64,000 bases of DNA from Psammoneis japonica. Its lineage: Eukaryota. The notes below the pieces were generated by a model. That model did no database searches, was not told the origin of the DNA, and saw only the letters and a program-made list of their open reading frames with translations. Numbering within the stretch: the first letter of the stretch is position 1; every line of letters starts with the position of its first letter. The translations under genes and the position numbers were made by a program. Positions 1 through 61,650 of the stretch are shown here, in pieces. The DNA lies in NCBI GenBank assembly GCA_008632985.1, contig QPGO01000022.1, forward strand, positions 62,001-126,000. Reading direction: 5' to 3'.

Positions 1-1712
1 GTGAGCAGGACTCCTTGGGGGCATTGCAGTCTTGCAAATCTTGATGCCAAGAAAATCAACAAGTTCTTGCTTGTTTTGCAACTCAAACACATGATGTTGT
101 TTCTCATCTTGCAGCCACCCCCAGGGCTTTGATCCTTTGTTCTTTCCAGCATGAACAGCATTGTCAACACAGACCACTCGAATCATCTCATCCTTGAAGA
201 ACAGGCATGGTTGACTTGTGACTGAGTCCACAACATTCGAGATTTGTTTTGACGACACTCTGAAGCTTGTCCTCAAGCACCAGAGATGTCCAGACTGGAG
301 AGCAGCCAGCGTTCTTGTGGAACATCTCATCATCAAAAAAGCACTCCTGATCAGTGGGTGGCTGTGTGCACACCTCAACAAAATCATTGTCATCACTCAG
401 TTCCATCAAATTGGCAAGTTCAAAAGGCAGAGTGGGTGCATCATTCTTGTCTCTGTCTGAGTGCACCACCAACTCACATTTGAGCTGTGTCATGCCTTGG
501 GAGAGCAGCACTGGATGAGCACACTGTGGGCAACAGGTCAACTCAGTCATCAAGAGCAGAGACAACATTTTGAGTCTGCCAAGAGCATGGGGAGTTAAAG
601 GGCTGAAAAGGGTGGGGAAGAGTGTGGCCAGCCACCATGCAATGGAGCAATTTTGCACACAATGACATCCCCATGGCAGGGATGGCAACACAGGGTGGGC
701 ACACGTTTGAACAGGCAGACATGGTGGGGTGAGAATCCTCAGCAGAGATGCCACAGGCAAAGATGGTGTGAGCTTGGGGCCCCACCAGGTGGCGGTCTGG
801 TGCCAGATTTGGCTTGGACATGGCATCAATGCAGTGCTGCTCAGTGGCAGGGAGAGCAGAATTGTCAAAGGGGGCACCAACTGGCTTGTGCTGTGGGGGG
901 TCTTTGTTGGGGAACATGACACCAGCATTGTCCCAAGAGAAGTTGCCACAGCTGCCAAAGCAATGCTGCAGTCACCAGCATCTTCAAGCTCAACAGTCTT
1001 GACTGCAATCTTGGTGAGCTCCCTCTGAGATGCAGGAGCTGGCTTGCAGAAGCCTTTTGCAGTTGGTGCAGCCAGCAGAGGATGGATCCTTGACTTGCAG
1101 GACAATGAAGCCCAGTTCACACTGGTTCCTTGCCGCCAACAGGAGCATCCCTGGGCAAGTCAGTTGGATCGGAGGCAGTCTGGGTGGCCAGCCCAAGTGG
1201 GTGCCTGAGCACAGGTCATTGATGGTTGATGGAGGTGAGGTCACCCACAAGCTGCTCTTGCTTGGACAGCTTGTGAGCATGGTCCAGTTTCCTGTGATTT
1301 GTGCATGTCATGTCCCTGTGACACCAGTGTGTTTGAAAGAGTGCACTTTTCACAGAAACAGGTCAAACCAGACTTGCTCACAATGGGCTTAGAGGGATCC
1401 ACCAGATGGGCACAACAACGGGGCTTCTTGGTGTGAGCAACTCCTTGGGTTTGGCTCTTGTTTCTCAGCAGGGGAAGTTTCAATGGCAGCAGCACATGTC
1501 ATTGATGCTGGCACTTTTTTTCTTTTGCTGTTGTTGTTCACATGCTTGGAACACTTGCATGGGGCTGTGCCAGCCCACCCAGTGGCATGTTGTGGCTCCA
1601 CAGGAGTGGTGGGCACTGCTGCAATCAGATTTGGAGGCATTGTGGCTCTGAGGGGGCTCAGTCAAGAAGCTGAGCCAATCCTCATCAGCATTCAGAAGAT
1701 GCTGGTGACTGT

Positions 1713-4270
1713 TTGAGAGGCAATGTCACTGCAGGCGGTGGGTGTGCTTCACAAAACATGCGGTTGAATGAAGAAGGAGTGACAGAACCTCAAGTCACTG
1801 AGGGGCTCAGGAAAGAGCACGTAGAAACAATGTGTTGCATGTCTGACACACTTTGTGATTGGGCAAAAGCTGCTCCCGGATGGGACGAAGTGCCGTTTGC
1901 TGCAGACAAAAGGCGCAACAATTACTTTGCTTCCAAACTTTGCGACAAATTTGGTCTCAACCGTGTCAACAAGAACGGCAAGCAGGCACAACTGTTTGAG
2001 CACTTTACACTGGCCATGACTTCGTTGGACGAGTTAGATCCTGTCACCAAACTGGCCACATTGCTCGGATGCCATGTAGACAACTTGAATTGCAGGAAAA
2101 AAAACTGCAACGCTCTCATGTGCACGCACTTTCATGTGTGCATTGATGGTGAGTTGTTGCTGTGTTCTGTCTTTCATTTTTAATTCGTGCAACATACATG
2201 CTCTAACGTCGTTGTTGAATTATTTTCTATCAGGCAAATGGTGTCGAATTTGTCTGATCGGATGTGGTCGTCGTTGCTGCTCCAAGCACTTCACTCGTTT
2301 AGCTGGCAGTGACGAATTTCTTCACCAGATGTTGAACTTCTTCCACTCCTTGCCCGAAGAGTGTCGCCAAATCAATGCACGTTTCTTGCTGCCATCACGT
2401 TCTGTTGGGGTTCACCATCCTTTCCCCAACATGAACAAAATGGTGTGGCACTCGGCCTTCGCCTCTGCCACACTGTGCGTGCTGCGGTCTTGTCCAATCT
2501 CCATGGAGCAAGCTTGTGAGTTGCTCTTGCCAGTGGGATGGTTGACCACCCCCATTCAGATGTACGAAGTGTGTGAAGGATGGGCGAAGAATGGTCTTCC
2601 CACCACCGGCAATCTCACCAAGGTGTTCATCGATGAATGCGTGCGCCGTTGTGGTGGGTCACTGCATGGCGACGGCAGTCGCTTGCAGCCAGCATTCAAT
2701 TGCTCTGCCACAGACGTGGCGACATGTCGTGCATTGTTTGCTCTTCTTCAATCTATTCGCAAGTCTACGCTGGGGAGTTAGATTGCGAAGGAGTGATCAA
2801 GCTTCTGACGCACCATGACAAGAAGAACAACGTTCCAAATGTGATTGGTGTGAGGGACATTGGTGCACAGCATCTGGTTGCAGTCGGCAGCATTGTAGCC
2901 ATGTACGAGGATGCAACGTTGGTGGAGCAAGCTTGGGTGTGTTCATCCACACGCACGTGTGAGGTTGTCAACGAGACATTCGGAATTAGAGCTCCCGTGG
3001 TAAACGAATGTTACAAGAAGTTTGCTCGACTCACTGGTGCAAATGCAGCAGTGTCGGAGAATGTTGCTTGTGAACAACTCAGAACTTTGGGTGAAATGTA
3101 GACGGTGTGACGTCCGAGCTTGTCAAGAGTGGCATTTCTCTACGGATGCAGAAGAATGGCCACTGTCATCGACCCGACACTGTTCACCATGATCAATCGA
3201 TCTTCGAAATTGAAAACGGCATTAGGATGGAATCCTTCAAGAAGTGTCATTCGAATGAAGGAGAGGAGCACGATCTGGTGCGTCAGCCAATGGAACTTCC
3301 TCAATGCAAGGTCAACAAGAGACTTGACATAGATTGTCCCTGGGTGCTGGGAAAGTTTGCATCCCTGAAACCAGTGGAAGCAAAAACTTCCGAAACATCC
3401 GTCCTCCCAGAAGATCGCAAGAAGAACGGCACTAGAAAGAAGAAGAGTGCCAAATTCAACAGAAACAGTCACTCTGGCACAGGAAGAAACTGCGCATGGG
3501 AAGCAGCTCTTCGAGAAAAGATAGACAAGAATTCCAAGCTTGACTTTGAGATCACTAAATGTGAAGAGAATGATTGACCTTGCTACACCAGCGTCAGTGA
3601 AGATCTCAAGTTAACATTGACTCTCAGCAGACGAAGCGTGACTCGGAACTCGACGCGTCCCAACTTGGAAAGTACATTTGGAGCCAACCAATCAGACGGC
3701 ACCTGTCGAACAATGGAATTGGCGAAATTGGCCATGACCAGTCTTGGTGCAGTAGCTTCTCGGAAAAGGAAAAGAGGGAAACGCCAATTGGTCCATTTTA
3801 CAACCAATGAACAATTTGGTCTGGATCCCATTTTTACTGCCACTTTTAATTCTGTGCAACAAGTGCTTTTGCGGAAGAACTGCCACGATTGCATTTTGCC
3901 ATTGGAAGGACTGGTGGCACATGAGAGAGATGTCGCGTTCTGCCAGACACGTGCACAAGCCGAAGCCACTGTCCTTCTGAAAGCTGTCTTGTGTCACACG
4001 TCAGGAACTAAGACGCGTTCAGAAACAAAGACAGATCCAAAATGGGCTGTAGATTTTCTACCAGATTCAAGAATGAATGCTTTGGGTAGAGATTTTGTCA
4101 TGTTGCACACATGCACTAGTGCGGGTCATGGTAAAAACTCAAGAGCAGCAAATGCATTGCTTGGTGTGCTGTTCTTTCGAGGCGGATGCCGGATTTTGTC
4201 TGTTCCCACCAACAAAATGGATTTGAAAAGGATGTGGCAAGACTGCTGTTTACAAAAGTTACAGTTGAAG
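1713..4270 (+). pseudogene. Degenerate multi-domain gene with one intron; candidate DNA base-modification protein (TET/JBP-like HxD region plus HhH / aG-PT-PPlase-like region)
   Basis: ORF pieces 1713-2183, 2134-2781, 2637-3101, 3107-3577 and 3617-~4270 are colinear. GT-AG intron at about 2149-2233 (GTGAGT...CTCTAAC...TCAG) joins 'HVCIDG' to 'KWCRICLIGCGRR'. Motifs: HVDNLN, GVRDIGAQHL, SENVACEQLR. Frameshifts and stops are present. The family assignment is inference. Confidence 0.45.
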
Positions 4271-7200
4271 TGTGCAACCACCAGCAAATGCTTGCCAATG
4301 GTTGAGCATTCAATGTTGTTGCATCGCCAACAATTGTTTCCGCATCCACAGGAATTGTCGTACAACTGCCTTTATAATGTGGCAAAATTGCAAGCTGGGG
4401 AAGGAATCGACATTGCGATCGAGATTGTTGGTCATCCGTCCGTTGGCGCTGTCGACGACTTTGCTCTTCTCTGTCAATGTTTTCTCTTGTTCGTCTGTGA
4501 CTGGGAACACCAGGTGGCAGCTCCATAGTTCCACAATGGATGATCCGTAAGTCATTCCCAGCTTCACTCCATTCAAGCACTTTCTCCCGAGCAATGTTGT
4601 GGGCAGCATCGGCCGATGCAGGACGTCGATGTTGGTGTGTTGCATTTTGCCATGCAGCTTCGAACGTCTCTCTTTTGGCTTTGTCACCATCAAATCCGCA
4701 CACAAATGCATGGCAAGTCCAAGGTCGCAGGAAATCAGATGACGACAATCTTGATCCTGATCCTCGATTGTGCTCATCAATCCGACGAAAAAGATCATTG
4801 GTGTGACCAACACATGCAGACGTGTTGTCTTTCACTGAAAGTGGCAAGTGCACAAATCCCGATTCATCCCTGAGACAATCAAAGTCTTTCGGACGGCATG
4901 GAAAGCATCTTAAGTCAAGCTCCGGTAGAGTCGTTTCACTCCCTTGAAATTTCTTAAGGAAGCAACACATGAAATCTGTGCATTGAGTGCGACGGAGGAG
5001 TGCGTTAGCCAGAGCATCTGCTGTTTCATCAGGCTCGCCAACAAAGATGGTGTCTTGTCCACGTCTTGTTCTAGACAAGAGAACTACAATCTGTTCTCGC
5101 GTCCAAAGAGAACACTCCTTCGATGCATTGATTTCTGTCACCAAAGTTTCCATTGTTTGACCCATGATGGAGTGATTGGTGCAAGCAACTCGATGTCGCA
5201 AACCATGTTGAGTCCGTTGAACTTGAAGTCCGCCTCGGAAAGAATGTGTTCTCGATGGAACACAAGGCATTGAAACTTCTCTCCATTGCAATTGAAGAAG
5301 CAAGGATTTGGAAGCACCTTGAGGAGGAAGACTCTCACATCCCTCAGGGGCGACTGTCACTCAAACAGGTTCCATGTTGCGCACTTGTTGGGCCGATGGC
5401 ATTTCTTCCTCACACATGGCAGCAAGTTGCTTGGCAGAGCATTTGTTCTCTCTGTCATGTGACACTTCATAGACTGCTCCGGGAAAGAAAAGTAACTCCG
5501 ATGGCATCTTTGATTCTTTGGACAGATGTTTTGACACCATGGCCGAGCGGCCAGCTCTCCAATGTCCTTCCAGCGTGGATTCTTCATCCTGAGCCATGGC
5601 CGTGACACTTGGCACGTGGCCAGCATTGCGCATCTTGTCAATGAGCATCTTCTCTGCTTGGAAGACTGCGCTCCACCTCCGAACACCCTGAGAGCTGAGT
5701 CCGGAATGCCGGGGTCGTCCCAACCTGGGACATGATGGAAAACAGACTTGATGAGACTTTTAAACTCCAACATTGTCTCTTGTGTCAAGTCTGTTGGAAG
5801 AATTCTTGTCATGTCTTGCACTCGTTTGTGTGGTTCATCTGAAGTGGCTCTCACAGATTGCTTCAACTGAAACAATGCAAAAGAGGTCAACAAAAATGGA
5901 GACAACAGTGGAGGACGACCTCAAACTGGGGGCAACTGCAAAGGGTCCATCGCAGATGCAACCAAAACGCCACCCATGAAAGCATTGGATCTGCGAATGC
6001 GACACAGCAAAACATCCAAAGCAGCAAGCAACTCTGCTGACACCTGTCCAAGTTCGTCTGTTGACAACACGTCGCGCATCTCAAGTGCAGCATTTCCTTC
6101 AGTTTGCTGTGCAGTTTCATGATGGTGAGTTCAGCTTGTCGTGCGGGGGACCTGTGACCAGGCCTCAGTCGAGACCATCCATGCATGTGCCGTCCTCCCA
6201 AAGCCAACGCACGCTCGGCCATGTGAGCTGTCGACAAAGTGGCAAGGCCACGAGACATTGCCTTGATGCCCGCCATCTCCACTCCACAAAAGGTTTTCCC
6301 ACACCCCGGACCACCTGCAACACAGACAGATTTTGTGACCGTTCTGGTGTTGGCAACACAACCATCCAATGCATTGTCCATTTTGTTGAGAACCAGACGT
6401 TGTTCCTCGAAAGACTCTCGGTTTTGTTGCTCAACATCAAAACGCACCTCGATCTCATCATGAACCGGGTTGTCAATGGTGGCTTCCAATGTTGCATCTT
6501 CAGATGGCAAAGTGACATTGGTCAAGTGTCTTAACCGAGCAATCAGTGCGTGGCACAAGGTGGGCTGCAATTTGTTTCGATGTTCATTCAAATCATTGTC
6601 CACCTGACGAACTAAGTGAGTTTGTGTTGCGGAAGGAGTTTCACCTGACGGAAGGCAGTCATCTACCACAATGCCGCACAATGCTCGTTTGGCATCGGCA
6701 CTCATTCTGTCAAAACTCTGAGATCCTCCCGGAGCACATGTGAGTTGTTCCCCCATGTGCCGTCGCAAGAGCCGGCGACAACATTCTTCCTCACGGCCAA
6801 GAACCAGCAGTTTGCTGCTTGTCAAAGCTTGTCTCAGATTTCCACCGGCAAATGTGTCACACTCATTGTCCATTTTACCCATGCTTGCAACAAGGTGCAC
6901 GACAAAAGCTTCCGGTCTGCTTGGATGGACACTGTCAAACCACACCACAGGCAGAACCTGTCCCTCATCTGAAGTGTCAAGAAAGAGGTTTGCACGTTTG
7001 GCCAACCACGTCTTGTCTCTCAATGACAACGAGTGACAAGGAGCATTGGTCAAGCGGTGCAGTGATTGAATGCACGTTCCATTTGAATTCTTGGAGACAG
7101 GTCACCAGCAACGCATCCAAAATCTTCATCCGTCAATGTCGCCATGTGTTCAATTGCCTCAGGAAGAGCTGCGACTCGCAATCTGATGTCACAATTTGTT

Positions 7201-10200
7201 CCATCAATCCAGCTTGTTTTTGAACAACACTCATCCAATGCTTCATCAAATCGCAGCTGAGCATCATCGAAGGCACCACATCCACTTAAACTGTCTCGTG
7301 TGAGCCATCGGAAGTGATGTTTTTGTTCCCGAGCAAACCGCAGCTCTGGAGGTCGAACGGCAAAAACAGTCCCAGAATCTGTTGAAACACTTGAAAGCAA
7401 TTGATCCTTCAGCATGAGTGATTCAGAAGCTGTGTGCATCCTCCAACGAGGAAATCGTCGTTTTAATTGCTGTTCGTGGCTGGGCACAACAGCTCTGCTG
7501 TCCAGGTCTCTTGGTTCTCTTGCTCGACCCGTTGGATCAACAACGCCCTCTCTTTGAAGCTTCTCGATCGTTGGCCGTCTGTCAAAAGCCGGGCGCATCT
7601 CTGTGGCCACTGCAGACACGTGAGCAAACCTGATGTCCGTGTGCACTTGTGGATGTCCCAAAATTGTAGATGTCATTTCCATCAATCCAGTTGCTCGTCC
7701 TTTTGATTGATGCTCACAATGCCGAGAGGTCCTGTGTCTTTCTTTCTCTTGCATGGCAGACAAGGCAACCTTGGTGTTTGCCAAGTGTTCCATGGCAACT
7801 TCAAAGGACCTGCCTTCCTTTCCTGCAGCAATTCCTGCTTGCACTCGATTGTGCTCATCGACGCTTGCAACATGCTTCGCCAAGCATCGAGACACCAAGC
7901 AACCAGTGCAGAATTGAAGATTCTGTGATGATCTGGTTGCAGCAAAAAGACGTCGTTGCATGCACTTGTCTTGCCCTCTGCAGCAGCGGCTGGAGGACAG
8001 TGTTTCCACGCTTCCAATCTAGCATCTGTTGCAACCCATCTTCCGGTTTCTTCACTCTTCTGCATGAGTCCAGCATCAGCCATCGCTTCACAAGCTTGTT
8101 CCGAGTGCACAATGTCGAGCAACCTCATCGTGTGTTCATTGGCAAATGGATTCTCAAGACCGTTGTCAGACACTCGACAAACAATGTCCCCATTTTTGTT
8201 CCTGCGCATGCAACGATTGCTGCAGATGCGTGACAACAGTCGACGGGAAAGGTCTCTTGCAGCTGGCAAATCATTTTCATCCGCAAGAATGCCCTCTTCA
8301 ATCAAACTTCTAACCTCATTGACTCGAATCAAGTCACCCAAATTTCCTCGAATGCAGTCCTTGATGACATCATCACCCCCGGTCCCACCCAACGTTGTCA
8401 GAGCATGCATGTGGGACAAATTGCCAGCAGCATCCTGACACTCATGACGATGCCAATGTCTCTTTGCAGGAGCACCAAATGGAAGCTCTTGACTCTTGGC
8501 AAGGTGTGACATGAAGAACTCTGTTGTCTCCACCCAGTTTCGCAACAGAAGCACCGCTGCCATTTGGTTCAACGACTCTTTTGCCTCTTGGCACTGTGCA
8601 TGAGTTGTCACCTTGTGTTGACTGCATGCTTCATCCAAGCATTCGTCACTGTCAAGCCATCGCTTCAATTCCTTGACCCCAAAATGATCTCTTTGATTGC
8701 GTGCAAAGGCAGCAAAAAGAGTGTGTTGTTCCACGTTTCCAGCCGCCGACAACTGATTCACCACCGGATGGGAATCGATCATGTCAGTGTCGAACAACGG
8801 AGCGCCCGTTTCCTTTGAACGGACACCCCCTTTCCTTGTCGTGGCGCAAAGCCCCAGTTTAGCATGACTCGAGAGTCATCGGATCTTAGTTCCAAATTTG
8901 CCAACGAATCAAATGAGTGCATGAGACATCGGGGATCCGCAGAACAGAGCAAACCGGGATCCATCGTTCTTGTCCCAATGTGATCCTCTACGCTGGCAAA
9001 ACCATTCTCGGAAGTGAATCCACTTTTGGTCAACAAGCCGCTGGGAAGAGAACCAACAACACTCCCATTGTGGAACGAACACCAAAACGTAGAAGGAAAG
9101 AGCATCGACTCTGGATGCACCAACGGCACCGACTTTCCAGCTGCCACCGACACTGTCCTTTGCAAAAAATTGTTGGTTGTGGTGCTGCCTGCAATTTCAT
9201 GTTCTGATCTAGTCAGCAGGCTTCCACAATTGTTGAGAATGACACAACCTGGTGTGCAAGTTCCTGGGGCACACGAGAAGGACGGAGCTTCTTCATCAAC
9301 CGCAGGAGTGTTCGAAAACACATCCTCCGAGAATTCAAAATTTAAACCGTCGCAAAATCCAAAAATGTCACCAAACTGTTCTGTGTTTTCAAAATCTCCA
9401 TCAGGCTCAAATCCTTGACACACATTAAAATCATCATCCAAGACTTCTTCCCAATCTTCACAATCTGCGTCGGATGTGTCAGTGTCAGCTGCAGAGGGTG
9501 TTGCCGGAGAAGCTTCATCATCAAAAGTGTCGATGTCGCCCATGTCAAAACCATCATCAACAATGTTCTGTTCCTCCCTGCCATCATGAAGCAAACCACC
9601 ACCATCTCGTAGCTCATCGTCCCTCTCACTGTCGTTTGGAGCTGCATTGTCAATGACACCAAAATGTGTCTTGTCAACGTTGGGTGGAATCTCCTTGTGA
9701 TGAACCGTGCACACTCTTGTGTTGCAACCGTCGACAGGACATTGAAAGCTGCATTGTTTCACACAACCATTTGCACAACAACTGCATTTCTTCCGAAATG
9801 GTGAAACGACCAATGGAGCATCATGGCATCGACAGTGTGCCCTCGTCTGTCCCCCGAGCGATGCCAAGAATCCATCATGAAGATGTCATGCACAAACACC
9901 CACTTCCCAATTGTTGCTCAAAGCATCAATTCTAAAGTCATCATCTGTCTTGTGAAAAAAAGGATGACAACATTGAACGTTGTTGGCACGAAAACACTTC
10001 CACCATCCGGGAAACATGTCATCTCCATGACGACTGTAAACTGAACCCGTCCATTTTTGGTTTTCATTGTCCCATGTCGATGCACTGACAAAGCGGAGCT
10101 CCCACTCACTCCCATCGCTTTTAATGCTGTCTCGCAGTGGCGCGGCTTGAGCATGGTCTAGAGCATGATCAACGACAATCACGACATCAAACAGTGGATT

Positions 10201-15780: not shown

Positions 15781-15816
15781 GGATGCTCTCTTGGCATCCT
15801 TCTGGAATTGCCTGAG

Positions 15817-16206: not shown

Positions 16207-16299
16207 TAAGACCTGGAGCCACGTCCTCCTGTGGTCGTGCTTCCCAGGTGCACGTTAACAACATTGCGTTGCCACGCACAAGAGGCTTGTGCACGGTCT

Positions 16300-41500: not shown

Positions 41501-41829
41501 AGGAATGGAAATTCATTCAGGACCCCTGTCCATTTTATGAGCTTGGTGCCATCAGAAGCAATGGCAAGAGATGCCATGTGTGAGACAGAAGCAACATTGC
41601 AGCATTGCTTTTGTCATTCAAACACTGCGCTCTTTTTGTGTGTTTGTTTCATCCAACGCTTTGGCATCTCAAACCCAAGTCCATGGCATGTGTGAAGGCG
41701 TGCGCTGCTGCATTTCAGCGTGGCTCCTGCCAGTCACAGGGAATCAGATGTGGAAAAGGAGAACACTGGGATTTGTTGGCTGCCATGCTCACCTTGATTC
41801 TTCTTGATCATGAAGCCCAATCTGCAGTG

Positions 41830-49500: not shown

Positions 49501-50104
49501 CGTCGACCCCGTTCTCGGTGTTAGCTCCGACCCCCTTCTCCCCCTGAATTCTATAGCGATCCATCATTTCAGACGAATAAAGACCCATTGGTTTGAACGG
49601 GTTGACCGCAATCAGGATGGGACCTGTGGCTGTGTAGATAATATCCGCATCGTACCTGAGTCGCAGGGCGTGCAGAATAGCAGGTTCGTGTAAATGCGTT
49701 AGCCCAATCAAATCGTCGACTCCTCCAACCACTGATTCGTCTACTTTGTTGGAAGGACTCGCAATAACTCCCGCTTCTGGGTCCTCTCCCACCAGATGGA
49801 AGCTCGTAGGCAAATTTCTCAGCTTAATGTCGTCGTGATCTGCAGTTTTGAGCTGTTCTGGATCCACCGTCACCACCACTTCGAACTGGTCTCGCTCATC
49901 GTAGTAACTCGAGCGCTGTCGAGCAATACTCGGTCTAGAAGGAGTCATACCCATTGTCATCTCAATGTTTGGGTCGTCCCTAAGGGTCAGGTTAAACATA
50001 TCAACTCCCTGCACCACAACTGGTGTTTTATCCGTAATAACAGCCGGCACCCATCCCCAGTGAGATCCGTCAGAGCGGAGCCATACGTGCGCTCCCACCT
50101 CCAT
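43563..50104 (-). pseudogene. Unconventional myosin (motor, IQ motifs, ankyrin repeats, kinase-like tail) with multiple disablements
   Basis: Motor motifs 'GESGAGKT', 'NDNSSRFGK', 'LDIFGFE', 'PHYIRCLKPN'. IQ repeats, ankyrin 'LPLH' repeats and kinase-like 'IHGDF..NIGK'. Introns 48693-48778, ~47268-47350 and 45517-45599. In-frame TAG at 48237-48239 and 44476-44478; frameshifts near 47686, 47067 and 46165. Confidence 0.9.
44191..44454. repeat. Near-exact ~130-bp tandem duplication inside the myosin kinase-like region
   Basis: 'AGTGGGAGACCCGCAATAGCC...GCGCTTGTTGTCAACTA' is repeated back to back. Confidence 0.9.
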
Positions 50105-51008
50105 GGTTGATGCCTTAGTTTGCTATCTGGTCGTGTAGCAGAGCGAGTAAGCAAGAGACTAATGAGTATGGTGGGTTGAATAATAATCAATGCAATCGGT
50201 CGACTTGAAGTCGCATCACACTGCAATCGATCGATCGCGACAAACGAAAGGGCCTGGAACAAAGTACCCAACAACATGCCACAGAGGTCACGAATCACAG
50301 TGTGCTCACCAGGGGATCTTTTAGAGGTAGTTCTGAGTCATCCTACCAAATTTTATGGCCCCAAGTGTCACCAGTGGTTCGTTGTATCAACGCATCCAAG
50401 GGTGGGCGAGGAGCCCGGCAACGCAAGCTTCCGCCTTTCCACTTTACCCAGTGCAAAGCCTAAACTGGTCGGTACACTACCAAGATCTTCCAAAAAGCAT
50501 GGGTGATGTCATGTTTTGACAATGAAGAGAATGTGGTTGTAGAGTAGGAAGAAAGGGTCGTCACACCGTAGACCAGATAGACACCAGATAGACACCTGCA
50601 CACATGAACTAGACACACAAAAAATCGCTCGTGAGACATGCGATTTTAGTCAAAACAAAGCCAAAACTCTCCAACATACTCACAGGCTTATCATATTTTG
50701 ACTATGATAAGATTGTCTGACAAATGCCAACGTCATAAGTGTCCTCCAGGCTCCATCGCGTCGTTTTGTTCCCAAGGCATGCACTTTTCCAAAATTTTGA
50801 CGGCCGAAAAACGACATGCCGTGATTACGAGCCGACCAAGACCCCGAGAACCACATCAAGCACGTCACATATCCAGCATAACATTCATAATGGGCACACC
50901 ACAGGATGTAGAGTGAGATGAAGAGTAAGGCTCCCAAACGGATACGCTGCAGTGGTGCAAACGACGTGAAAAGACACCAATGTTGCAGAAGCGATAATCG
51001 AGCAAATC

Positions 51009-52035
51009 GACGATCAATCGACCTTACAAGCTGTAACAAAAAGCAACAATGATCTTTAGTGAATAAGAAAACGATATAAAATGATAAGACACAAAGAGAA
51101 CTTACCGTCGCAACGTTGTCGACCGTAATCACTGTCTCGGGTGAAGCTGAAGGAGAAGTTGAGATTCGGTCCGATGGGTGCGACATCCGTTGCGCAGATG
51201 GTACGGACACGTTCTACCACCATGACTTTCTTCTTCACTTCTCTCTCACATGCTATAAAAGCGACAAGTCTCCAAGGTCGCTACACCTCTCGATCATCGA
51301 CACTCTTTCGTACGTAGTGTTATTATGAGAGCTTGTTATCACGCACGATTGAAATCTTTCGCCAAATCGACCGACCGTACGAGACGATCAATCGACCTTA
51401 CAAGCTGTAACAAAAAGCAACAATGATCTTTAGTGAACAAGAAAACGATATAAAATGATAAGACACAAAGAGAACTTACCGTCGCAACGTTGTCGACCGT
51501 AATCACTGTCTCGGGTGAAGCCGAAGGAGAAGTTGAGATTCGGTCCGATGGGTGCGACATCCGTTGCGCAGATGGTACGGACACGTTCTACCACCATGAC
51601 TTTCTTCTTCACTTCTCTCTCACATGCTATAAAAGCGACAAGTCTCCAAGGTCGCTACACCTCTCGATCATCGACACTCTTTCGTACGTAGTGTTATTAT
51701 GAGAGCTTGTTATCACGCACGATTGAAATCTTTCGCCAAATCGACCGACCGTACGAGACGATCAATCGACCTTACATGCTGTAACAAAAAGCAACAATGA
51801 TCTTTAGTGAACAAGAAAACGATATAAAATGATAAGACACAAAGAGAACTTACCGTCGCAACGTTGTCGACCGTAATCACTGTCTCGGGTGAAGCCGAAG
51901 GAGAAGTTGAGATTCGGTCCGATGGGTGCGACATCCGTTGCGCAGATGGTACGGACACGTTCTACCACCATGACTTTCTTCTTCACTTCTCTCTCACATG
52001 CTATAAAAGCGACAAGTCTCCAAGGTCGCTGCACC
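51009..52035. repeat. 374-bp tandem repeat, ~2.7 near-identical copies
   Basis: Units start at 51009, 51383 and 51757. Each carries, on the minus strand, a short exon-like segment followed by GTAAGT...TTACAG. Confidence 0.95.
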
Positions 52036-52439
52036 CATCATTGCGATGTCATTGCCATTCTCGATCATCGACACTCTTACTCTCTTTCGTGTGATTATGA
52101 CGACAGAAATCGTTTTCGCCAAAAATCGGAAACGGTTGGATAGTTTTTAGTTTTGTACAGAAAATGCGATAGTAATGCTGTACGTAGAATCAATACCATG
52201 ACCTAGTATGTAGAACATCGGAAGGACGAGCAGACGAGCCGTGCGCAGACGTAGGTAGACAAGCCGCACGGAAACATTCAACATGTGACGAAGATCTCAC
52301 GCGGACAAAAAGGCAAAGAGAGCAGAATTTGATCCCTTCGAATGGATCCGATCGCGCAGAAAGATGTCGGATGTCGCATCACGCATCAGCCGGCCATGGC
52401 TCATGCAAACATGACACCCCACTGCCGCTGATGGCCGAC

Positions 52440-53880
52440 GGCTTTTGAGATCTTCGGGCTACACAACACTTCCCGTGTTCGCTGGGCTGGCAAATCTCTC
52501 TCCTCAAGAAGACTGACTCCTGTTTGCCCCAATCTCACCACTGGTTCAACACAAGAACAAGAGCCGGCACAGCAGGGCCCAGCATGAAGTTTGCACAAGG
52601 GTGCTAAATGTGACGGACTCGTCATTGTTCAACAAGGCACCATCAAGACAGTCAATGTTTCGATTGGTGATGCCAAGGTGCAGGACTTGACCTTTGGTTG
52701 CAATGGAGTCTTTTTGGGGGCAGAATCTCACCCAAGACGAAAAGCCATGGCCAGGCGACGCGAGGGCGCTGACGGACGGAGTCATGTTTTACCTTTCACG
52801 AGACAACTTTGTCAAGGTGGTGGGTGGACTCGATCTAGACAAGTTCATTGCCAAGAGCTTGTACAAGCACATGCTGGTGCGTTTTTGACAGTGTCTCACG
52901 ATGAAAACAAGCACATCTTTTTCCGACAAGAGGCAAGGTCGTGACGCATCCAACGATTTACATTGTCATTTCGGGAACAGTTTTGGTGTCCACCAACAGT
53001 TTGTCAGGCGGAATGACCAAGATTCTTGAATCAAATGGCATGTTTGGACACGAACAACTCGCACCAGAAACAAAAGGAGAGCCCACAAAAGCGACATGCC
53101 GGCACACCATTGCAGCGGCTCAAGACGTGACAATGGGTGTCTTGACTCTGGAGGATGTCAAAGGGGTCATTTTAGATCAAGCAAGACTGAGCAGAAAGAT
53201 TGAAGAGGCACCCACCAAACCGGGATGTTCGATTCAACTCGATTCCTTGAAAATGCTCAAACCACTGGGAGCGGGTGCCTTTGGACAAGTGTGGCCAGTT
53301 TGTGAAAGTGACAACCCAAACACCGGCGCAACAAAAAACTGCTCATCAAGAAGGCAACGCCAAGCAGCAGCAATGGCAGCCAAAAAGCAGGCAAAGCGAT
53401 GTGTGTGCTCAAGGTCCAACACAAGCATGACACACTGAAGTGCAACCAAGCAACGGGAGCACTGGAGGAGAAAGCAATTGTGCAAAAGATGGGTCATCCC
53501 TTTGTCATGCGTCTGCTCGATTCGCACAAGGACGAGGAGTGTCATCACATGCTGGTCAATCCATTTCAAGGTGCAGAGCTGTCCAGCATTGTTCACACAC
53601 ATGAATTTGACAGTGTTCCCAAGGATGAGGTTGTTTTCCATGCCGCGGCAGTGTGACATGCTGGACAGTGATGGATGTTGTGTTTTAATCGATCTTGGTT
53701 TTGGTGAGCATTGCACAGGTGTCATTTGGCGGCAGAGGTGTGACTCTTTTAAATGCCGAGGAATGTCTTCTCATGTTGTTTGCTCATTGCTTCTTGAGTC
53801 CCCCACAGCCTTCAGCGCACAGGGTCGTGATGCCGATCACGACCAAGAGGAGATTTGGAACAAAATTGTCAATGCTTCCA
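52440..53880 (+). pseudogene. cGMP/cAMP-dependent protein kinase (cNMP-binding + AGC kinase) remnant
   Basis: cNMP-like 'DGLVIVQQGTIK' and 'IYIVISGTV..GMFGHE'. Kinase motifs 'LGAGAFGQVW', 'VCVLKVQHK..EEKAIVQKMGHPFVMRL..QGAEL..FHAAAV' and 'MLDSDGCCVLIDLGF'. Deletions and frameshifts present. Confidence 0.85.
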
Positions 53881-53967
53881 CTTTTTCGGCATGATGATCC
53901 CCCGACTGAAAGTGCGGGAAGTGGCATCAGCCTGACTGCTGCAAGTGCGAGAGCTTCTCGGTCGACG

Positions 53968-54616
53968 ATGGCTCAAACCTCCAACACAAGTTCTCCAGAC
54001 AACAATGTCGTGGTCATGGACAGCGGATGTGACTTGCATGATGAGTCGTTTCCAAAGCAATTTGACACTGGCCTGATTTCACGTGAAGAATGCAATGAGA
54101 AAATGCAGCAACTCAGAGAACGCTTGGACGAGTGGAAATGCGGAAGAGCGACTGTTGCGATTCCAACCATTGCCTTGTTTGTTCTTGTTGCCTTTTTGCG
54201 GCCCACTTCACTGCCCATTTTTGGAGCAGCCCACTGTTTGATCATCCTGGGTGCATTGCAGCCATGGCTGTGACCATTGCTTCTGTATTTTGCCTCCTCT
54301 GTCGGCACTCACAACGGGAATTGCAGAAGCCAGTGGCAGACGTTGAAGACTTGCATCAACTCTGGAGAGGCCGAGGCATCCACGTGACAATGAAATGATG
54401 TGCAAATGTCGCCCAATCAATCCCACATGTGCAACGTTCATCAAGAGCAATGCATGGAGGCAACCTGCATCTGGGTCAAATTGTTGTTGCATCGTCATGA
54501 CACTGATCGATGAAAATGAGGAAGATGTGCAAGACAATGTGAGCACAGGAACAATCATGACTGACGCAGCCGCTAGAGTGGAAGCGGCGATGAAGCAAAC
54601 GAGGAGGGAGAGGTGA
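53968..54616 (+). pseudogene. Small membrane protein remnant, Erf4/Golgin-A7-like
   Basis: 'ESFPKQFDTGLISREECNEKMQQLRERL', two hydrophobic stretches, then 'LWRGRGIHV'. Frameshifted. Confidence 0.4.
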
Positions 54617-56052
54617 ATGTTGCAGATGATGTCATTTGGAAGCAGCGTGTTGGGTTGTTGCGCACTGCGCAAGCAGCAGCTTGGATTGACTGAAGCTTTT
54701 TGAAAAGTTCAAGCCATGAAATCATGAGCGTTGATTTTAAATGGCGCGTTTTGTGCTTCACGCACAGGAGCCTCGGGACATCCTTTGAAGCCGTGCAAGC
54801 CCGCCTTGACATGCTGTGGCCCTGCCAGAGCAGAACTTGCCACACAGCGGATGCCATCTTTCATGAGAGCAGCAATCGGCAGCTGTTCTTTAACCGAATC
54901 GGAGTCATGGGATGGCATCTGTTTTCCAACTGAATCGTTGCTCTAAAGTGAGATCAACGACCAGCATGCACGCTGGGTACAAAAATGGGAACGTTTGCAA
55001 GAGTTTCGCATGGAAGGACTCACGATGATAAAATGCTACACAGAAAATGGTCTCTGTCGGTGGGTCTAGTTTATGAAAAGGATTCACGCTTTTTGACAAA
55101 CCAAGCAACAACAACGAGTGCAGCTTTCCGTCTCAGTTGCTTGTCCTCGATCCGCACAGCAACTTGAGCTGCGCTTTCACTCCGAATTGGACGCCACAAC
55201 AGAGCACAGATCTGCAGAGCATTTCAAGCAGTTTGGAAGAAAGAGAGCCCGTGAAGCAAGGTGGCAAAACATGAGAGGGAGATCTTGTTCAGGAAGCCTT
55301 GCCAGCCAAATCCATTTGCCGTCAAGCATGATGATCTCATCACTCTTGCAAAAGACACTGCAACTGTCAATGGCACCGGAACAAAAGAAAATGGCAAGTG
55401 TCTCTCGCAAGATCTTTTGCTTCGTCGAAACCAACCATAAATTTTTTTATAAAAGCACTTGGCAGCCTCAAGTTGGAGCAGTCCTTTGACATTGAATCTC
55501 AATTCCATGGATGGACGGTTGTCTTGTTGTTCTCCCGAACCGTTGCTGGTTCATGTCGCGACAACAAGAAGCCACCCACACAAAATGCTGATGATTCTTC
55601 CACCTCAGTGTCATCACATTGACTTTAACTAAGATGGAAGGGTCACAGAGTTTACTTTCCATGCAGCCGACCGAGCCCAAGGAACAACTGAGGTGCTTGC
55701 GGCGAAGCGTTTGTCTTTTCATTGTGGAGTTGGTAAACACCACCACCTTTTCCTGAGGGCAAACAATGCAGAAGAGTCTTGGGTGCCATCTTGCTTCCTC
55801 GATTGGTTGTTTTCCGCAAAGTGCATGTCTCGCAAGCAAGAGCTGGTTGTGGCAGAAAAAGCTTGAGCTCAAAATGATCAATCCTTACATTCTGACTTGC
55901 ATCGGAGGATGCATTGAAGTCAATGCTGCGCATCCTGGGCCATCAGTTTGGCGGGGCCAGCAGATGCTTTCGCAGCATGAGGCGGGGTGGACTGGTGGAC
56001 CACGACGACTTTTGAACTTTTGTCACTGGCGAGAGTGAGTGCTGACAAATGA

Positions 56053-56632
56053 TGCCTCTCTGTCACGTTTGTCGTTCGGTTGTCACAAAGGTGGGCGGTC
56101 GTGGCGGCAGGCATTCGTTGAACTCCAACACAGCACACACGGTGGAACAGTGCGTTCTGGCAATGACCAAGGTGCAGCAAGCCAGGATGGTTGCTCAACG
56201 ACAAGTCATTGCCACTGGACAACACTTGCACAGCGCATGTGCCACAAGCCCAATGATCCACATGTCCCCATCCATGTTGATCAAATTGCGGTCTGAATGG
56301 TTTGGCCTTGCATCTGACTGCAAGAGGCCCGGGCTCTGCTGAGAGCACCCATGTCGTCCCTTGCACGACAGCGTCGTTGCCCTCTCTGTCATGTTCATTG
56401 TTCGGTTCTCACAAAGTTGGGCCATCGTGGCGGCAAGTGTGCATTGAACTCCAAAACCAGCACACACTGGTGGAACAGCTCGCACTGGCGCATGTGCCAC
56501 AAGCCCAATGATCCACGTGCCCCTGCCCTGCACAGTGAGATCCATGTGTTGGGCAAATTACGGTCTGAATGGTTTGGCCTTGCATCTCACTGCAAGAGGC
56601 CTGGGCTCTGCCAAGTGCCCATGTCATCCCTT
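56053..56632 (+). repeat. Diverged ~250-320-bp tandem duplication
   Basis: 'CTCTCTGTCA.GTT..TTCGGTT.TCACAAAG.TGGGC..GCATGTGCCACAAGCCCAATGATCCAC..GGTCTGAATGGTTTGGCCTTGCATCT.ACTGCAAGAGGCC' occurs twice. Confidence 0.8.
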
Positions 56633-56999
56633 GGTCGCAAAGGTCGAACTCCCCAGAGATCACTCAGTGACTCCCATCTGCCGCTCGGCACATTGCCTGG
56701 TCTCTCATGCAAGCAGGGTCCCATCAAACTGACTGCACCTGACGCTTTTCAAAGAGGTGGGTCAAGTGCTGGGATGCACTCTGCTGCTGGCACAGAAGAA
56801 GACCTTGTTCATGACACGTGCACATGTGAGTGTCACTTGGCTGCCGCAACTCTCTTCTTTGTAAGTCAAGCTCCATCTCTGTCCAGCTTGTGTCTTTCCT
56901 TGATGATGACAGTGTGTTTTCTGCCGAGCAATGGGCACATGTGTGTTGTTTTGATGCAAAGTGCTCAAAACTAGTTGCACATCATGTGGTCAAAGACAG

Positions 57000-59900
57000 C
57001 AAGAGGCAATCCTCGATCAAAATCTTTGTTCCATTGCATTGGCATGAGCCGCCAACTGCCACGGTCCAAAATTAAACTTGTTGTTCTTCCTGAATGCAAA
57101 ACTCGAGATTGGAGTCCTCGTCTTTGCCCTCTCTTTTGGACACAGTGTGACTGCTCAAACCATGCTGTGCTTTTGGCACAACTTGCTGTGGAAACTGGTG
57201 CAAGATCCAGTTTCAAACAATGGACGACATGCGTGTGGCAGCACTGGTGGTCTCATGCTGACACTGCATGAGATCATGCAGGAAAAAGTTGGTGACTTTC
57301 ATGTCTGTCATGGACAGGAAGTGAGTGATTTTCTTGCTGGCAAACAAGGTGAGCCAGAGATTCATGCTGGTGCCAGTTGTTGTGGAGATGGCTGCCAAAT
57401 TGCCCCAAACATCAAGCACCCATGGAAAAGCATGTGCAAATGATCTGGGACACATGAAGCAACAATTCATGAATCTGAGGAAGGATCTCCAAACTGAGCT
57501 TGCTCCATCGTTTCTTGCCAGCTCTGCACAAGATCATTGCTTTGCAGATCTGAGTTGGCCAATGATGACTGCGGTTGCATCAAGCACAGAAAGATGCCAT
57601 CCATGTGGCAGTTGTCATGATGATCCACCCAAGCAGCAGAAAGAGGAGCCATGACAATGTCTGCCATGTCATCATTGGAGGCAACTGGTGGAGATTGGCA
57701 GGCTCTTGGGGGACCAGTCAAGGTTTCTTTCCATGCAGAAAACCTTGTTGTGGACTGGCGCTCTGCTCCATCATCCCAAAGAACAGTCCTGTTGTCCCCC
57801 GTTTGCACACATGACTGAGCAAGCCTTGATGGCACCAACTGAATCAAAGGGCACCAGCAACTGTCCATTGTTGTTCTTCGGTTTTTCAAGGAAACAGAGC
57901 TGGCATCTCCAGGGACTTGTCAAGAACTTTCTCATCATGCTTGCACTGTTGTGCAGCTCAAATGCAGCATTGACTGTGATGCTCCTCCAGGCAAAGGCAT
58001 TGCACACTGGCATCCCTTGGTTGCAAGAGTTGCTGTCAATCTGGGTGAAAAAAACATGGACACTCTTGCGGACTCTGTCATGTTGTTCACCCCCAAGGCA
58101 TTGTGCGCACACACAGCAGAGCAAACATTGCCACCAAGATTGTTCCTGGTCAGGGTGCCCCTCAAAGCATTGAAAAACCGATTCAAAAACTTGACAATCT
58201 CATGGAAGAAGATGTGGGTTGCTGACAGGTGCATCAGGGGTGTCCATTTGCATCTGCTGCACCATGCATCATTTTTTGTTGGCACCACACCATCATGTGC
58301 AAAACCTTTGTTGCTTTCTCTGGAGAGAGTTTGGAGACAGGTGTCATCACCTTGAGCAGGATCAGCGCTGGGTGACAGACCTGTGCCTGTGCTCCATTTC
58401 TCAGATTGTTTGCTTCTTCAGGTCTGAGTTGGATCTCTTGCAGTGTCCACATCCTTGTGTTGAGAGGCCCTCCAAATCAAGTCTCAATGACACCTGCTGC
58501 AGCTCTTTGTTTTCTGTCACATTGACTTGAGCAAATCTCTCAATGTGATGCCAGCAAGCTCTGCATTGGCATTGGTGTGTGTCCACCCCCAATCTCAGCA
58601 CTTGGCAGTTGGACAGGTGGGAATGGATCAAGTCGAAACATGCACAACGAGAAAGGGTCATGACCCACAGGCATCACTAAAAGATGGTTGTCTCTGATGT
58701 TGAGCTGCAAACATGATTGATTTTAGCTGCAGGGGAGTTGTGCAGTGCAAATGGACATTGCACTTTGACATGCCCAACCTGTTTGTGTGCTTTTCTTCCT
58801 TCACCTGGCCATGTGTGGTTGTGCCTTGCAAGAGATTGCCAACAGCATTGTTTTGCAAGTTCAATCTGCACATGCAGAAGCTGCGCTTGCTGTTCACTGG
58901 TCCAATGCCATCACTGCACTGGTTGGATGGAGCTGTGTCATTGGAACAGTTCAAACTGCTCACTCTGAAGTTGCAGCTTCTGGGGCCAATCGTGGCGCCA
59001 AACCAAACCACAGCAAGCCCTGGAACCACTGCAAGACCACAATTTGACAGCTGTGTCTTTCTGGTCTTTGCACACATTCCATCCATTGCAACTCTTTCCA
59101 ATCATGGCTTGCACCCCGCAGAATTGAGTCACAAGTTGAGGCACATTGCCGTTTGCACCATGTGTCAAAACCAAAGCCCCCCAGAAAACCAAACCAATGT
59201 GTCAACCTCTTCATGACAATGGCAGAAAAAGATCCCCCATGAAAAAGACACATCCTCAACCTCCGCAAGACCCAAATTCTCACCGCCAAATTGCTGAAGC
59301 AGCCCCGTTCCCACTCTTCCTCCCTTTCAAGCTGACCCTCTCTGTGCCACCCTCTCATGCCTTGACACTGAAAATGATTCATCCTGCAGCTCCAAACTCA
59401 CCTCTGGTGTGTCTGCTTCCTTGGTCAACCCCTTGGTTCACAAACTTTTGCTGGCTCCTTCTTCTCTGCCGCCACTTCCACCCTCTCCAACAAGGTTGAC
59501 ATGCTCCTCTCTTGCTTTCATGACAAGCAAACTCAAGCTCAACTTTTCAAGCATTTCTTCACTCCTTCCTCTGTCCATCCACTTGGCAACAACTTTTGCC
59601 ACAGCTTTGATCCCAACAACCCACCCAATCGCTTCCTCTGGCCCTCCTCCTTTCAAGACTTTCTTCTTGCTGCTGCTCACTGATTTCTCCACTCTGTGCC
59701 ACCTCCCACACTGCTCCTCTCCCCAATCACCACTCCCTTGCCATTGCCCTCCTTCCTGCTTTGCTTGGGTGCTTTGGTCTTCATGATCCAGCTGCTGCTG
59801 CCACCCCTTTGTTTCTGATCTCACTCCTCCTCCGCCCCCTCTGCTTTGCATCTTGCAGCATCCAGCTGCCGTCAGGTGCTGCCGCCACCCTTCCTTGCTG

Positions 59901-60900
59901 CTTTGAGCTCTCCCTGTCTGCTTGGAACAACCCCCCCGCTTGACCTTGCGTCTTTGCATGATCTTCCGTTGCTGTTCCCCTGCTCTTGCTTCTGCCCCTG
60001 CCCTTTCTGCCTCCTCCCTGGCTGCCCTTGTCAAGTCGGCCACTCTTCCTGGCCTGGCCTGGCCTGCCATCAACATCATGAGCACCAGCAACAAATCATT
60101 GCTTCTGCTCTTGCCAGTGCTCCCTCTGACGTGCAAGTCTCTCTGCCTTTGCTGCTGTCCCTGCTCACCAGCTCACCACTTCATTCTCTCTCTCTCTTTC
60201 TTGCCACTCCAAGAGCTCTCATCTCACTTCTGATGCCTGTGTTGTTGCCACTCAGTGAAAACCCAATTCTTCCTCCCTCCCTTGCTGGTGTGCCTTGTCC
60301 CTGTGGCTGTGTTGCTTTGCTCAACAATGACAGCATCTTCCTTCTTCCTTTCTCTGTCAACCACCTCTTGGCAGCCTTGGATTCTTTGCCCATCACATCC
60401 TTTTTTGCTCTGTGCATTCATCTGCTTGCTCTCAACCCAAGCCTCCCTGGTCCTCTCCCTCTGATCTTTGCCGCTCTGATGCTTCTTGCTCTGCTTTCCT
60501 CTGTGCCATCATCTCCCTCTGCTCTCCTCCCATCTGCTGATTTTGTGTGGAATCACCTGTCCACTGAACGCTTTGGCACTGCATTCTGCACCACTTCTCC
60601 TTCTCAGTGGGCCATTCAAACCCTTGGTCACAGCATTGTCCTTCCCCTGCCTTGTCCAGCCCTTCTGCCAAGCGCCCCACGTCCTGCACTTGCTGCCCAT
60701 TCTTGTCTGCCGTCACTGCAGCTGTCTCCGTGCCCCTTCTGCTGTCCCCTTTTGCTCCACACAGGCTCTTTAACTCTGCACTTAGTTTAAAAGCGTGCCA
60801 AATGAAACTGCACACAAAACACAAACAAGAGCAATGTCAAGCATCAGCCGCACACCCAGCACCCGCACCCGTGCCATCCAACCATGAACTTTAGCACCGA
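57000..60900 (-). mobile_element. Very degenerate non-LTR retrotransposon (RT and RNase H-like remnants)
   Basis: Fragments in the expected order: 'CSNDTA..CSDGI', 'TNRLGMSK..PLQ', 'VSKLSPEKATKVL', then RNase H-like 'DG.F', 'WSKLSL' (YRSEL-like) and 'RHESHQ'. No intact catalytic motif; the upstream limit is a guess. Confidence 0.4.
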
Positions 60901-61106
60901 ATTCCTTTCCCTCCCCAAGGACAAGAGGCAGCTCTTGCTGGAGATGACCAAGTTTCTTGCAGAGTGGAGTAACAACCCAGTGCTGAAACACTCAACACAA
61001 CGCATTGATGCCACACGTGATCACTTTCGTCACACCCAAGAGTGAGCTTCTCGCATCATGACACTGCCTGCTGCTTGTTTCTGTCCTGCTGATTCATTCC
61101 AACATC

Positions 61107-61376
61107 TTGACATTTGCTGTTCTCCATGGAAGGGTGAGCGAAGATAAAGGAGAGAAGCTCAGTCAGGACTTGACGGAAGCCAACGAAGAGGTGGCCGACA
61201 CGGAGGCTGAAATCGAGGCTCAACAACGCGAGTTGTCTCGCGGCCAAGCGAAGCATGACTCGTTGCGCGACAAGCTCGCTGGCCGCAAAGATCGCGCTGC
61301 TTCAGCCGCTGGAGGGTGCGAGGATTGGAAGCAAGAACACATCAAGTTGACTCGCGAGCGGGAGGCGTGCTTGTGA
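61107..61376 (+). pseudogene. Coiled-coil protein fragment
   Basis: Heptad-like E/K/R/A-rich ORF 'LSQDLTEANEEVADTEAEIEAQQRELSR..LRDKLA'. Confidence 0.35.
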
Positions 61377-61650
61377 CATCTGGGTAAAAACCCACCCAGC
61401 AGGATCCGTGAGGATTGAGTCGTCGAAACCGTCGAACTCTTGGGGAGCTCCGACTACCATGCTACTGCCCGTACCGGTATGTTCAGTTCTGCTTCAATGT
61501 TGGGGGGCATGTCGTAAGGAAATGGATTTTGTAGAAGCTGTAGTCTGTAGAACAACTACATATATTTACTAGATCTAGGCCTAGAGATCAAACCGAACAC
61601 CTTCCAAAGTAGTCGTCTTAAAGATGTATGCGTCCCAACGAATTCATCAA

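Follow-up and report, generated by a model that had tools for sequence, protein, structure and literature searches.

How can kilobases of a eukaryotic genome lose one dinucleotide almost completely while genes close by keep it? The question is raised by a 64,000-nt stretch of the genome of the diatom Psammoneis japonica (GenBank assembly GCA_008632985.1, contig QPGO01000022.1, positions 62,001 to 126,000 of the forward strand; hereafter the window, with positions counted from its first letter), in which TpA (TA) is nearly absent from four blocks, the first of them carrying a degenerate giant mobile-element gene (4530-11706, minus strand). Here, we argue, with a probability of roughly 0.7, that multi-kilobase, silenced, transposon-derived blocks have undergone hypermutation of TpA to TpG or CpA in situ and at the DNA level, and that this is the diatom counterpart of a process in Bigelowiella natans.

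Extent, direction and flanking bases of TpA loss

Two-state segmentation on TA counts, together with a 1-kb scan, defines the compartments of the window. Block 1 (1-17900) has a TA observed/expected ratio (obs/exp) of 0.12 and a CpG ratio of 0.69, with partial conversion in its sub-zones 1801-4600 and 11001-15000; the ratios are 0.07 and 0.51 in block 2 (19501-26800), 0.05 and 0.38 in block 3 (37801-43200), and 0.07 and 0.45 in block 4 (52301-61400), which contains the longest stretch without TA (2047 bp, 58724-60771). Altogether the four blocks hold 227 TA in 39,700 bp (5.7/kb) against 849 in 20,700 bp of gene-bearing DNA (41/kb), and TA obs/exp is 0.51-0.86 in the six larger segments between blocks. 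An earlier reading made from the letters alone (the sequence-only reading) had described TpA as near-absent from four domains and common between them, with two TA in 1-1740; the counts agree, down to exactly two, at 596 and 1390, and its term near-saturating is apt for ratios of 0.05-0.12.

The transition at block boundaries spans about 100-200 bp, and conversion ends 0.4-2 kb from genes. A search for terminal repeats at block edges, block 3 included, gave a best match of 14 nt and nothing longer, and comparison of the window with itself found no pairs of long terminal repeats or terminal inverted repeats. The blocks extend over several unrelated sequences, and their limits are domain edges, not element edges. 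As the sequence-only reading had also held, the loss is confined to domains with degenerate mobile elements and a kinase pseudogene, genes being spared.

TG and CA have an obs/exp of 1.65 inside the blocks versus 1.16 outside, a surplus of about 70 per kb that, by arithmetic on composition, equals the summed deficit of TA and CG. Among the 32 strand-symmetric trinucleotides, the block/normal ratio is 0.04-0.29 for those containing TA, a weaker 0.49-0.72 for those containing CG, and 0.81-1.73 for the rest. Strong CpG depletion (0.1-0.3) is found only in subdomains 1-2k, 22-24k, 39-43.2k and 57-61.4k, which are the most TA-poor, while 5-18k combines a TA ratio of 0.05-0.2 with a CpG ratio of 0.55-1.06. 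Decay of 5-methylcytosine (5mC) at CpG is probably also at work in the most highly converted subdomains, those with CpG at 0.1-0.3. CpG loss in the blocks is itself flank-dependent, with ACGA/TCGT at 0.43, TCGA at 0.49, CCGG at 1.0 and GCGC at 0.91 of normal density. Because TAA and TAG stops are lost in TA-free DNA, long false open reading frames (ORFs) arise there: the window has 37 frames of at least 200 aa, counted stop to stop, and the chance expectation for frames of at least 323 aa in the blocks is about 0.4.

The direction of change can be read from the mobile-element gene at 4530-11706, which is split into at least five frames and comprises an N-terminal region, a Rep-like region (HxH, YxxKY), a Pif1-type helicase and an SLX1-type GIY-YIG region. 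Its relatives are P0121, P0122 and ten environmental loci; in the metagenome scans, alignment A2 matched 165 stretches, none of which was confirmed, and P0121 as query gave the ten loci. TA obs/exp in the matched region is 0.47-0.68 in all ten, whose longest open frames measure 253-2708 aa with 1.9-3.6% Tyr. Nine relatives were mapped codon by codon onto the element (L003, L005 and L006 were dropped as near-duplicates of L002 and L004), a codon counting as conserved when three or more relatives covered it and at least 75% of them agreed. Only two of 19 conserved Tyr are kept in the element, the others reading His (7), Cys (7), Leu (1), Gln (1) or Phe (1), while residue types other than Tyr and Ile are retained at 53-94% of conserved codons. 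A purine precedes six of the seven Tyr-to-His codons. Each of the seven replacements of Thr by Ala has the form t|GCN, and the 16 Thr codons that are retained all lack a preceding t; the t|GCN reading therefore marks a change of TA to TG across the codon boundary. In the pairwise alignment with P0121, its 30 Tyr stand opposite nine His, eight Cys, seven Phe and one Tyr in the window, and among the pairs listed no Cys or His of a homologue stands opposite a window Tyr.

The same substitutions fall in recognizable motifs. Where homologues have RYLAKY or RYVVKY, the window has RCLAKH (CLAKH at 7872-7886, minus strand); EYQ has become ECQ and DPRY has become DPRC, and in the GIY-YIG region 'VYL...FYIG' of a homologue corresponds to 'VHL...ACVG'. 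The sequence-only reading had named the YxxKY, EYQ and GIY-YIG changes, and these stand, with catalytic-type tyrosines removed in the Rep-like and GIY-YIG regions; its change of HIH to HMH in motif 2 does not, as homologue P0122 also has HMH. Two strings that it had ascribed to a protease, LPDSG (13630-13644, minus) and HDMIIG (13417-13434, minus), are present, but the ORFs that carry them match no Pfam family even at E ≤ 10, which leaves the protease identity without family support. Intact family members, which might have encoded Cys or His at these sites, encode Tyr, and since the relatives do so with normal TA, the window copy is the derived state. The count of conserved Tyr, the relatives at normal TA and the comparisons of paralogues and tandem copies given below confirm that the TA loss is mutational and runs from TA to TG or CA, as had been proposed.

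Survival of TA varies with the flanking bases. Relative to normal DNA, it is 0.008 in the blocks for ATAT, 0.019 for ATAC/GTAT, 0.067 for ATAA/TTAT, 0.073 for CTAT/ATAG, 0.074 for GTAC, 0.13 for CTAC/GTAG, 0.20 for GTAA/TTAC, 0.24 for CTAG, 0.35 for CTAA/TTAG and 0.91 for TTAA. In counts, RTAY occurs 16 times in the blocks, against 512 predicted from normal density and 267 present in normal DNA of about half the length; for TTAA the corresponding figures are 49, 54 and 28. When the element is measured against its own relatives the order of flanks is unchanged, with RTAY words at 0 and TTAA at 0.78. By arithmetic on the survival values, an additive model, in which log-survival is the sum of a left and a right flank term (base 5' of T: A 2.4, G 1.3, C 0.72, T 0.05), fits, giving 0.086 for ATAA, observed at 0.067; the strands are therefore hit independently, the unit being VTA (T changed) or TAB (A changed). 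The rate of T to C in 5'-N-T-A follows A > G > C >> T, which is equivalent to T > C > G >> A for A to G in T-A-N. A palindromic site read whole, as a product of flanks, was also tried and rejected (0.51 predicted for ATAA, 0.067 observed). The partly converted zones 1801-4600, 11001-15000 and 30301-33800 repeat this flank order in weaker form, with RTAY reduced to 0.13, 0.04 and 0.29 and the half-fast words to 0.46, 0.24 and 0.49, with TTAA at 0.74-2.4 (0.79 of normal density in 30301-33800, which includes an ~800-bp tandem array at 30.8-32.7k).

Repeats within the window record the change in place. A 390-bp family is present as copies a (15817-16210, plus), b (20521-20920, plus), c (24803-25197, plus, within a CpG-poor subdomain) and d (25893-26293, minus), copy a belonging to a very high-copy repeat with depth to ~96,000. 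Four of the six copy pairs were compared and gave transitions:transversions of 23:2 (a-d), 35:4 (a-c), 46:4 (c-d) and 50:34 (a-b). Each of the four has 6-10 columns with TG in one copy and CA in the other, and the alignment has columns such as CA/TA/TG/TA. For a-d, since only four CpG columns differ, we infer that the six doublets are independent conversions of ancestral TA. A tandem pair on the plus strand is split in its state: copy 1 (33368-33810; 9 TA) is converted and copy 2 (33971-34397; 23 TA), 160 bp away, is not. At the 23 TA of copy 2, copy 1 has TG at eight, CA at eight and TA at six, with one reverse case; the boundary of the partly converted zone thus falls between two copies of one repeat. 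From this pair, we estimate as a lower bound that TA changes at least about 30-fold faster than other sites.

These copies also bear on what sets the process off. The sequence-only reading had cast it as a reverse of repeat-induced point mutation (RIP), acting on repeats, and this part of it is not supported. The 6.7-kb element has a depth of 114-147 versus 145-191 at 16.7-18.7k, a flank that spans the block edge into normal-TA DNA, and is roughly single-copy. Conversely, an array of three 374-bp units upstream of a myosin gene (51009-52035), 98.6-99.4% identical, has normal TA and is unmutated although block 4 starts ~300 bp away. Because a low-copy element is hit, a 99.4%-identical array is untouched and one tandem copy is spared, the process is not triggered by homology. 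Summed depth of contigs from run X1 reaches 3,400-96,000 at 12674-16675 and 19344-20000, compared with 114-378 for the remaining bins below 12.7 kb; the genome therefore contains a highly abundant repeat family, itself TA-poor in the window.

Explanations for the loss

In the hypermutation that we propose, each strand is hit independently at VTA/TAB, with RTAY erased first and TTAA immune, and segments have received different doses of one process; CpG decay, presumably from 5mC, follows more slowly in the most highly converted segments. A candidate enzyme would be a DNA-acting adenine deaminase of the ADAT2/TadA type (A to inosine to G); the alternative candidate is a TET/JBP-type thymine oxidase, whose products 5-hydroxymethyluracil (5hmU) or 5-formyluracil would mispair with G. 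We take the fixed T before A to fit the U33-A34 context of ADAT2/TadA-like enzymes. Guidance would come from chromatin state rather than sequence homology. In codons, Tyr becomes Cys or His, Thr read as t|ACN becomes Ala, and TAA/TAG stops disappear; TATA boxes, AATAAA signals and TA insertion sites would presumably go as well. Elements would in this way be inactivated, their catalytic tyrosines gone, without new stop codons.

Several points weigh against this reading. Since blocks 2-4 are mostly without recognizable homology, a transposon origin has been demonstrated in parts of block 1 alone, and in block 4 a pseudogene accounts for one part. The normal state from which TA survival is calculated is the gene-rich DNA of the window, and the transposon baseline for the flank order is relatives from other organisms. 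Conserved Ile fares as badly as Tyr, with one of 18 kept (Leu 7, Val 6, Thr 2, Met 1, Phe 1); the losses that fit a change of TA to TG or CA are t|ATY to t|GTY (four of the six Val) and ATA to ACA or ATG, while the seven Ile-to-Leu replacements fall outside it and require transversions or a lineage difference. TG/CA doublets between copies could in principle stem from CpG; that this is unlikely for pair a-d is reasoned rather than measured. As TA is self-complementary, adenine and thymine chemistry are inseparable by sequence. Finally, runs X1-X3 are one sample, perhaps the assembly's own data.

The alternative that survives best, although we consider it unlikely, is passive decay: a TpA-specific base modification, such as 5hmU or N6-methyladenine (6mA) at VTAB, would miscode in silent chromatin, spontaneously or through repair, and slowly erode TA much as 5mC does CpG, with no role in defense. 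It would account for the graded doses among segments, the CpG decay in the most highly converted subdomains, the equal effect on both strands and limits that follow domain edges rather than element edges. It fits poorly with a TA loss that far outpaces CpG loss, as in 5-18k, and that runs about 30-fold or more above other sites in the tandem-pair estimate; among the 12 titles listed by a full-text literature search, none reports 5hmU or 6mA in diatoms. According to the main text of the B. natans study, mutation there was burst-like, with 2-45 changes per line in 11 of the 15 lines (bioRxiv 10.64898/2026.01.13.699255), which again speaks against slow erosion.

It is very improbable that the TA-poor sequence is an artefact, whether from mistakes in consensus building or polishing or from a modified base, such as deoxyinosine, that polymerases read as G. 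The window does have a scaffold gap (29836-30260), and all runs come from one sample. Yet Logan contigs of X1 match the TA-poor sequence at 98-99.5% identity, with 3/635, 4/696 and 15/793 nt differences where ~23 per 700 nt would be expected were the reads at normal TA density; TA at these positions, which raw reads might have shown, is not what these contigs (perhaps of the assembly's own sample) contain. The sequence is not a consensus artefact, the agreement with X1 not being independent confirmation. Paralogous copies are moreover fixed differently, the changes sit in coherent codon replacements, and the sparing of TTAA beside the erasure of RTAY would require a real modification of that specificity, in which case the modification would be the discovery. 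Adjacent TG/CA doublets also distinguish the window from X1 contigs, for example at 5355-6, 6480-1, 7073-4, 7145-6 and 17783-4, and might be independent conversion in two haplotypes or paralogues.

A-to-I editing of element transcripts by an ADAR- or ADAT-like enzyme, followed by reverse transcription and integration, has a still smaller chance of being right and is contradicted by the data. ADAR and ADAT enzymes do prefer U before the edited A, as the Discussion of the B. natans study notes (10.64898/2026.01.13.699255). Editing of this kind would leave strand-pure tracks, and none are seen: Tyr-to-Cys and Tyr-to-His changes number seven each, an equal conversion of both strands, and TG and CA both stand at ~1.65. 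The clearest targets are a DNA element with helicase and GIY-YIG and a pseudogene, with no retroelement among them; conversions are independent in copies already inserted, and the blocks cross unrelated sequences without terminal repeats. A native composition, from a TA-avoiding source or from selection against TA (for example by TA-targeting transposons or nucleases), has the composition itself in its favor and nothing more; the polarised comparisons contradict it, and it is highly improbable given that conserved Tyr sites read Cys or His, that genes are broken, that relatives have normal TA and that a neighboring tandem copy keeps it.

Genes and other content of the window

The window sequence is eukaryotic, with a single scaffold gap. 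A profile built from seven relatives of the element matched, in the PDB, SLX1-type GIY-YIG (E 2e-11), residues 1004-1202 of Helraiser 7lcc (E 9e-11) and Pif1 helicases, and PF05970 was detected in P0122. The Helraiser match is to the helicase part, its Rep domain lying outside the matched range, and Helitron_like_N had no Pfam match in the element family. The HxH and YxxKY motifs, which are of the type found in HUH Rep endonucleases with two catalytic tyrosines, are kept among the relatives, and the region is a putative Rep domain. Canonical Helitrons are not known to carry a GIY-YIG nuclease. Judged by its domains, the element is a Helitron relative, and it is not a canonical member because an SLX1-type GIY-YIG is present at its C-terminus. 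Six of the environmental loci, L002 and L004 as well as L001, L003, L005 and L006, encode intact proteins of 2527-2708 aa with a large N-terminal region, HxH/YxxKY, a Pif1/Helraiser-like helicase and an SLX1-type GIY-YIG, and without Pfam Helitron_like_N; from their sequences, this family looks like unusual Helitron-related elements of diatom-type organisms.

A Pfam scan of 130 ORFs of at least 120 aa, and looser scans after it, left most block sequence without a family match. The ORF at 59819-60787 (plus) had no homologue at E ≤ 0.001 among 8000 scored candidates, and that at 191-1159 (minus) had 0 matches among 1.84 billion representatives. A viral origin of blocks 2-4, as in B. natans, would be compatible with these negatives. 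Block 4 does contain a degenerate pseudogene with cNMP-binding and protein-kinase regions, PKG-like (52905-53653, plus), with Pkinase at E 4.8e-5 and cNMP_binding at E 1e-3, both below Pfam cut-offs; against PDB kinases it scores E 3e-4 to 1e-2, NYYLVM standing opposite CHHMLV. The FHAA string that the sequence-only reading had reported from a kinase is there (53636-53647, plus), the kinase identity being tentative at that E value. Kinase fragments are also present in normal-TA DNA.

The normal-TA gene domain 43201-52300 (TA obs/exp 0.63) holds the unmutated 374-bp array and, at 44479-50122 on the minus strand, the gene for a myosin that has ankyrin and IQ regions. The best named relatives of this myosin are from the diatoms Amphora and Cylindrotheca, the top match being 73% identical, and the ESM Atlas cluster closest to it consists mostly of Bacillariophyta. 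Directly downstream of the gene, within a kinase-like ORF of normal TA, lies a perfect 133-bp tandem duplication (44192-44456, 100%). At the right end (61401-64000), normal-TA DNA carries a fragment of a gene of the ornithine/diaminopimelate decarboxylase type. A 1.6-kb normal-TA island (17901-19500, TA 0.60) is enclosed by blocks 1 and 2 and might represent a unit that is protected or expressed, or else have been inserted later; run X2 is patchy over the first 20 kb, with a depth peak at the island.

An ORF at 36356-37135 (plus), in mostly normal-TA DNA, has a Pif1 2B domain (E 2e-5). At E<1e-5 it shows no relation to the converted element and is therefore part of another element with a helicase, or a fragment of a host PIF1, that largely escaped conversion. 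The tandem array adjoining the scaffold gap (30798-32672) has ~800-bp units that are 87-91% identical and GC-rich, with CpG obs/exp >1 and intermediate TA; it has open frames on both strands and no family match.

Known systems and significance

The sequence-only reading knew of no described system with this signature. There is one: TpA hypermutation has been measured in integrated DNA of nucleocytoplasmic large DNA viruses (NCLDV) and virophages in Bigelowiella natans (Mettrop et al., bioRxiv 10.64898/2026.01.13.699255, version 14 Apr 2026). As its main text reports, 231 of 302 nuclear point mutations in mutation-accumulation lines fell in NCLDV and virophage regions, 230 of these 231 being A>G or T>C changes that without exception hit TpA; mutation is episodic, and its rate of ~6e-7 per site per generation is ~1000-fold over background (10.64898/2026.01.13.699255). 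The text also gives 324 low-TpA coding sequences, enriched in reverse-transcriptase and DDE domains, and 124 clusters of TpA-poor, CpA+TpG-rich windows, and proposes an ADAT2-like candidate (10.64898/2026.01.13.699255). Diatoms are not mentioned in that main text, and our full-text literature search found no report of TpA loss in diatom repeats.

The two cases share the exclusive change of A:T to G:C at TpA, to TpG or CpA according to strand, in discrete regions of non-host type, with the myosin and decarboxylase gene regions of the window keeping normal TA. They share the depletion of TpA with enrichment of CpA+TpG in clustered windows and the effect on single-copy DNA, hence neither is repeat-induced. 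They differ in host, B. natans belonging to Rhizaria and diatoms to Stramenopila, and in target, viral insertions there and transposon-type sequences plus a pseudogene here. The window is near saturation, at TA obs/exp 0.05-0.12 versus the 0.45 given for an NCLDV region of B. natans, and where the B. natans rate was measured directly, our evidence is sequence comparison with a lower bound of ~30-fold. The flank rule and the independence of strands are new here; 'TTAA' and 'trinucleotide' are absent from the main text of that preprint (bioRxiv 10.64898/2026.01.13.699255).

Other known processes resemble this one in part. Like fungal RIP, it makes dense in-situ DNA transitions at one dinucleotide, inactivates mobile elements and leaves distinct blocks beside normal genes. 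RIP, however, changes C:G to T:A, mostly CpA to TpA, and creates stops, while here the direction is opposite and stops are removed; RIP also needs duplication and mutates both copies, while the targets in the window include low-copy DNA, and a 99%-identical array and one tandem copy are spared. Decay of 5mC at CpG likewise turns a self-complementary YpR step into TpG/CpA in silenced DNA, but it acts on C, cannot remove TA and is slower here than TA loss. That RIP and 5mC decay both run in the wrong direction to produce the signature had been rightly argued from the sequence alone. APOBEC3 and ADAR hyper-editing are also base editing against selfish nucleic acids. APOBEC3 acts on retroelement cDNA and ADAR on double-stranded RNA, so that the targets are single-stranded cDNA or RNA and the tracks strand-biased, whereas in the window both strands of resident chromosomal DNA are equally converted. 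Fungal mRNA editing of the ADAT2/3 type has U at -1, and adenosine deaminases in general prefer U or T before the edited A; the 3' preference seen here, T>C>G>>A, is not known for ADAR or TadA.

More tentatively, and with somewhat less than even confidence, we suggest that diatoms and chlorarachniophytes share an editor, which might then occur in much of the stramenopile, alveolate and rhizarian group: chromatin-guided, acting on double-stranded DNA during ordinary growth, changing A:T to G:C at VTA/TAB, and forming an arm of defense distinct from RIP, APOBEC and small-RNA silencing. If true, the hypermutation of B. natans would be no one-species curiosity but a widespread way in which algae disarm mobile and foreign DNA. 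To that picture the diatom case adds an end state, in which blocks almost devoid of TA lie next to intact genes, and it rules out homology between copies as the trigger. It also adds a target rule (VTA/TAB, with TTAA immune and strands independent) that any candidate enzyme must reproduce in vitro. The false ORFs of TA-free DNA can pollute gene catalogues. Transformable model diatoms exist, and a genetic hunt for the enzyme is possible. A natural A-to-G editor of DNA would be of interest to genome engineers and, if the reading is true, would be a base editor of a kind not yet characterized.

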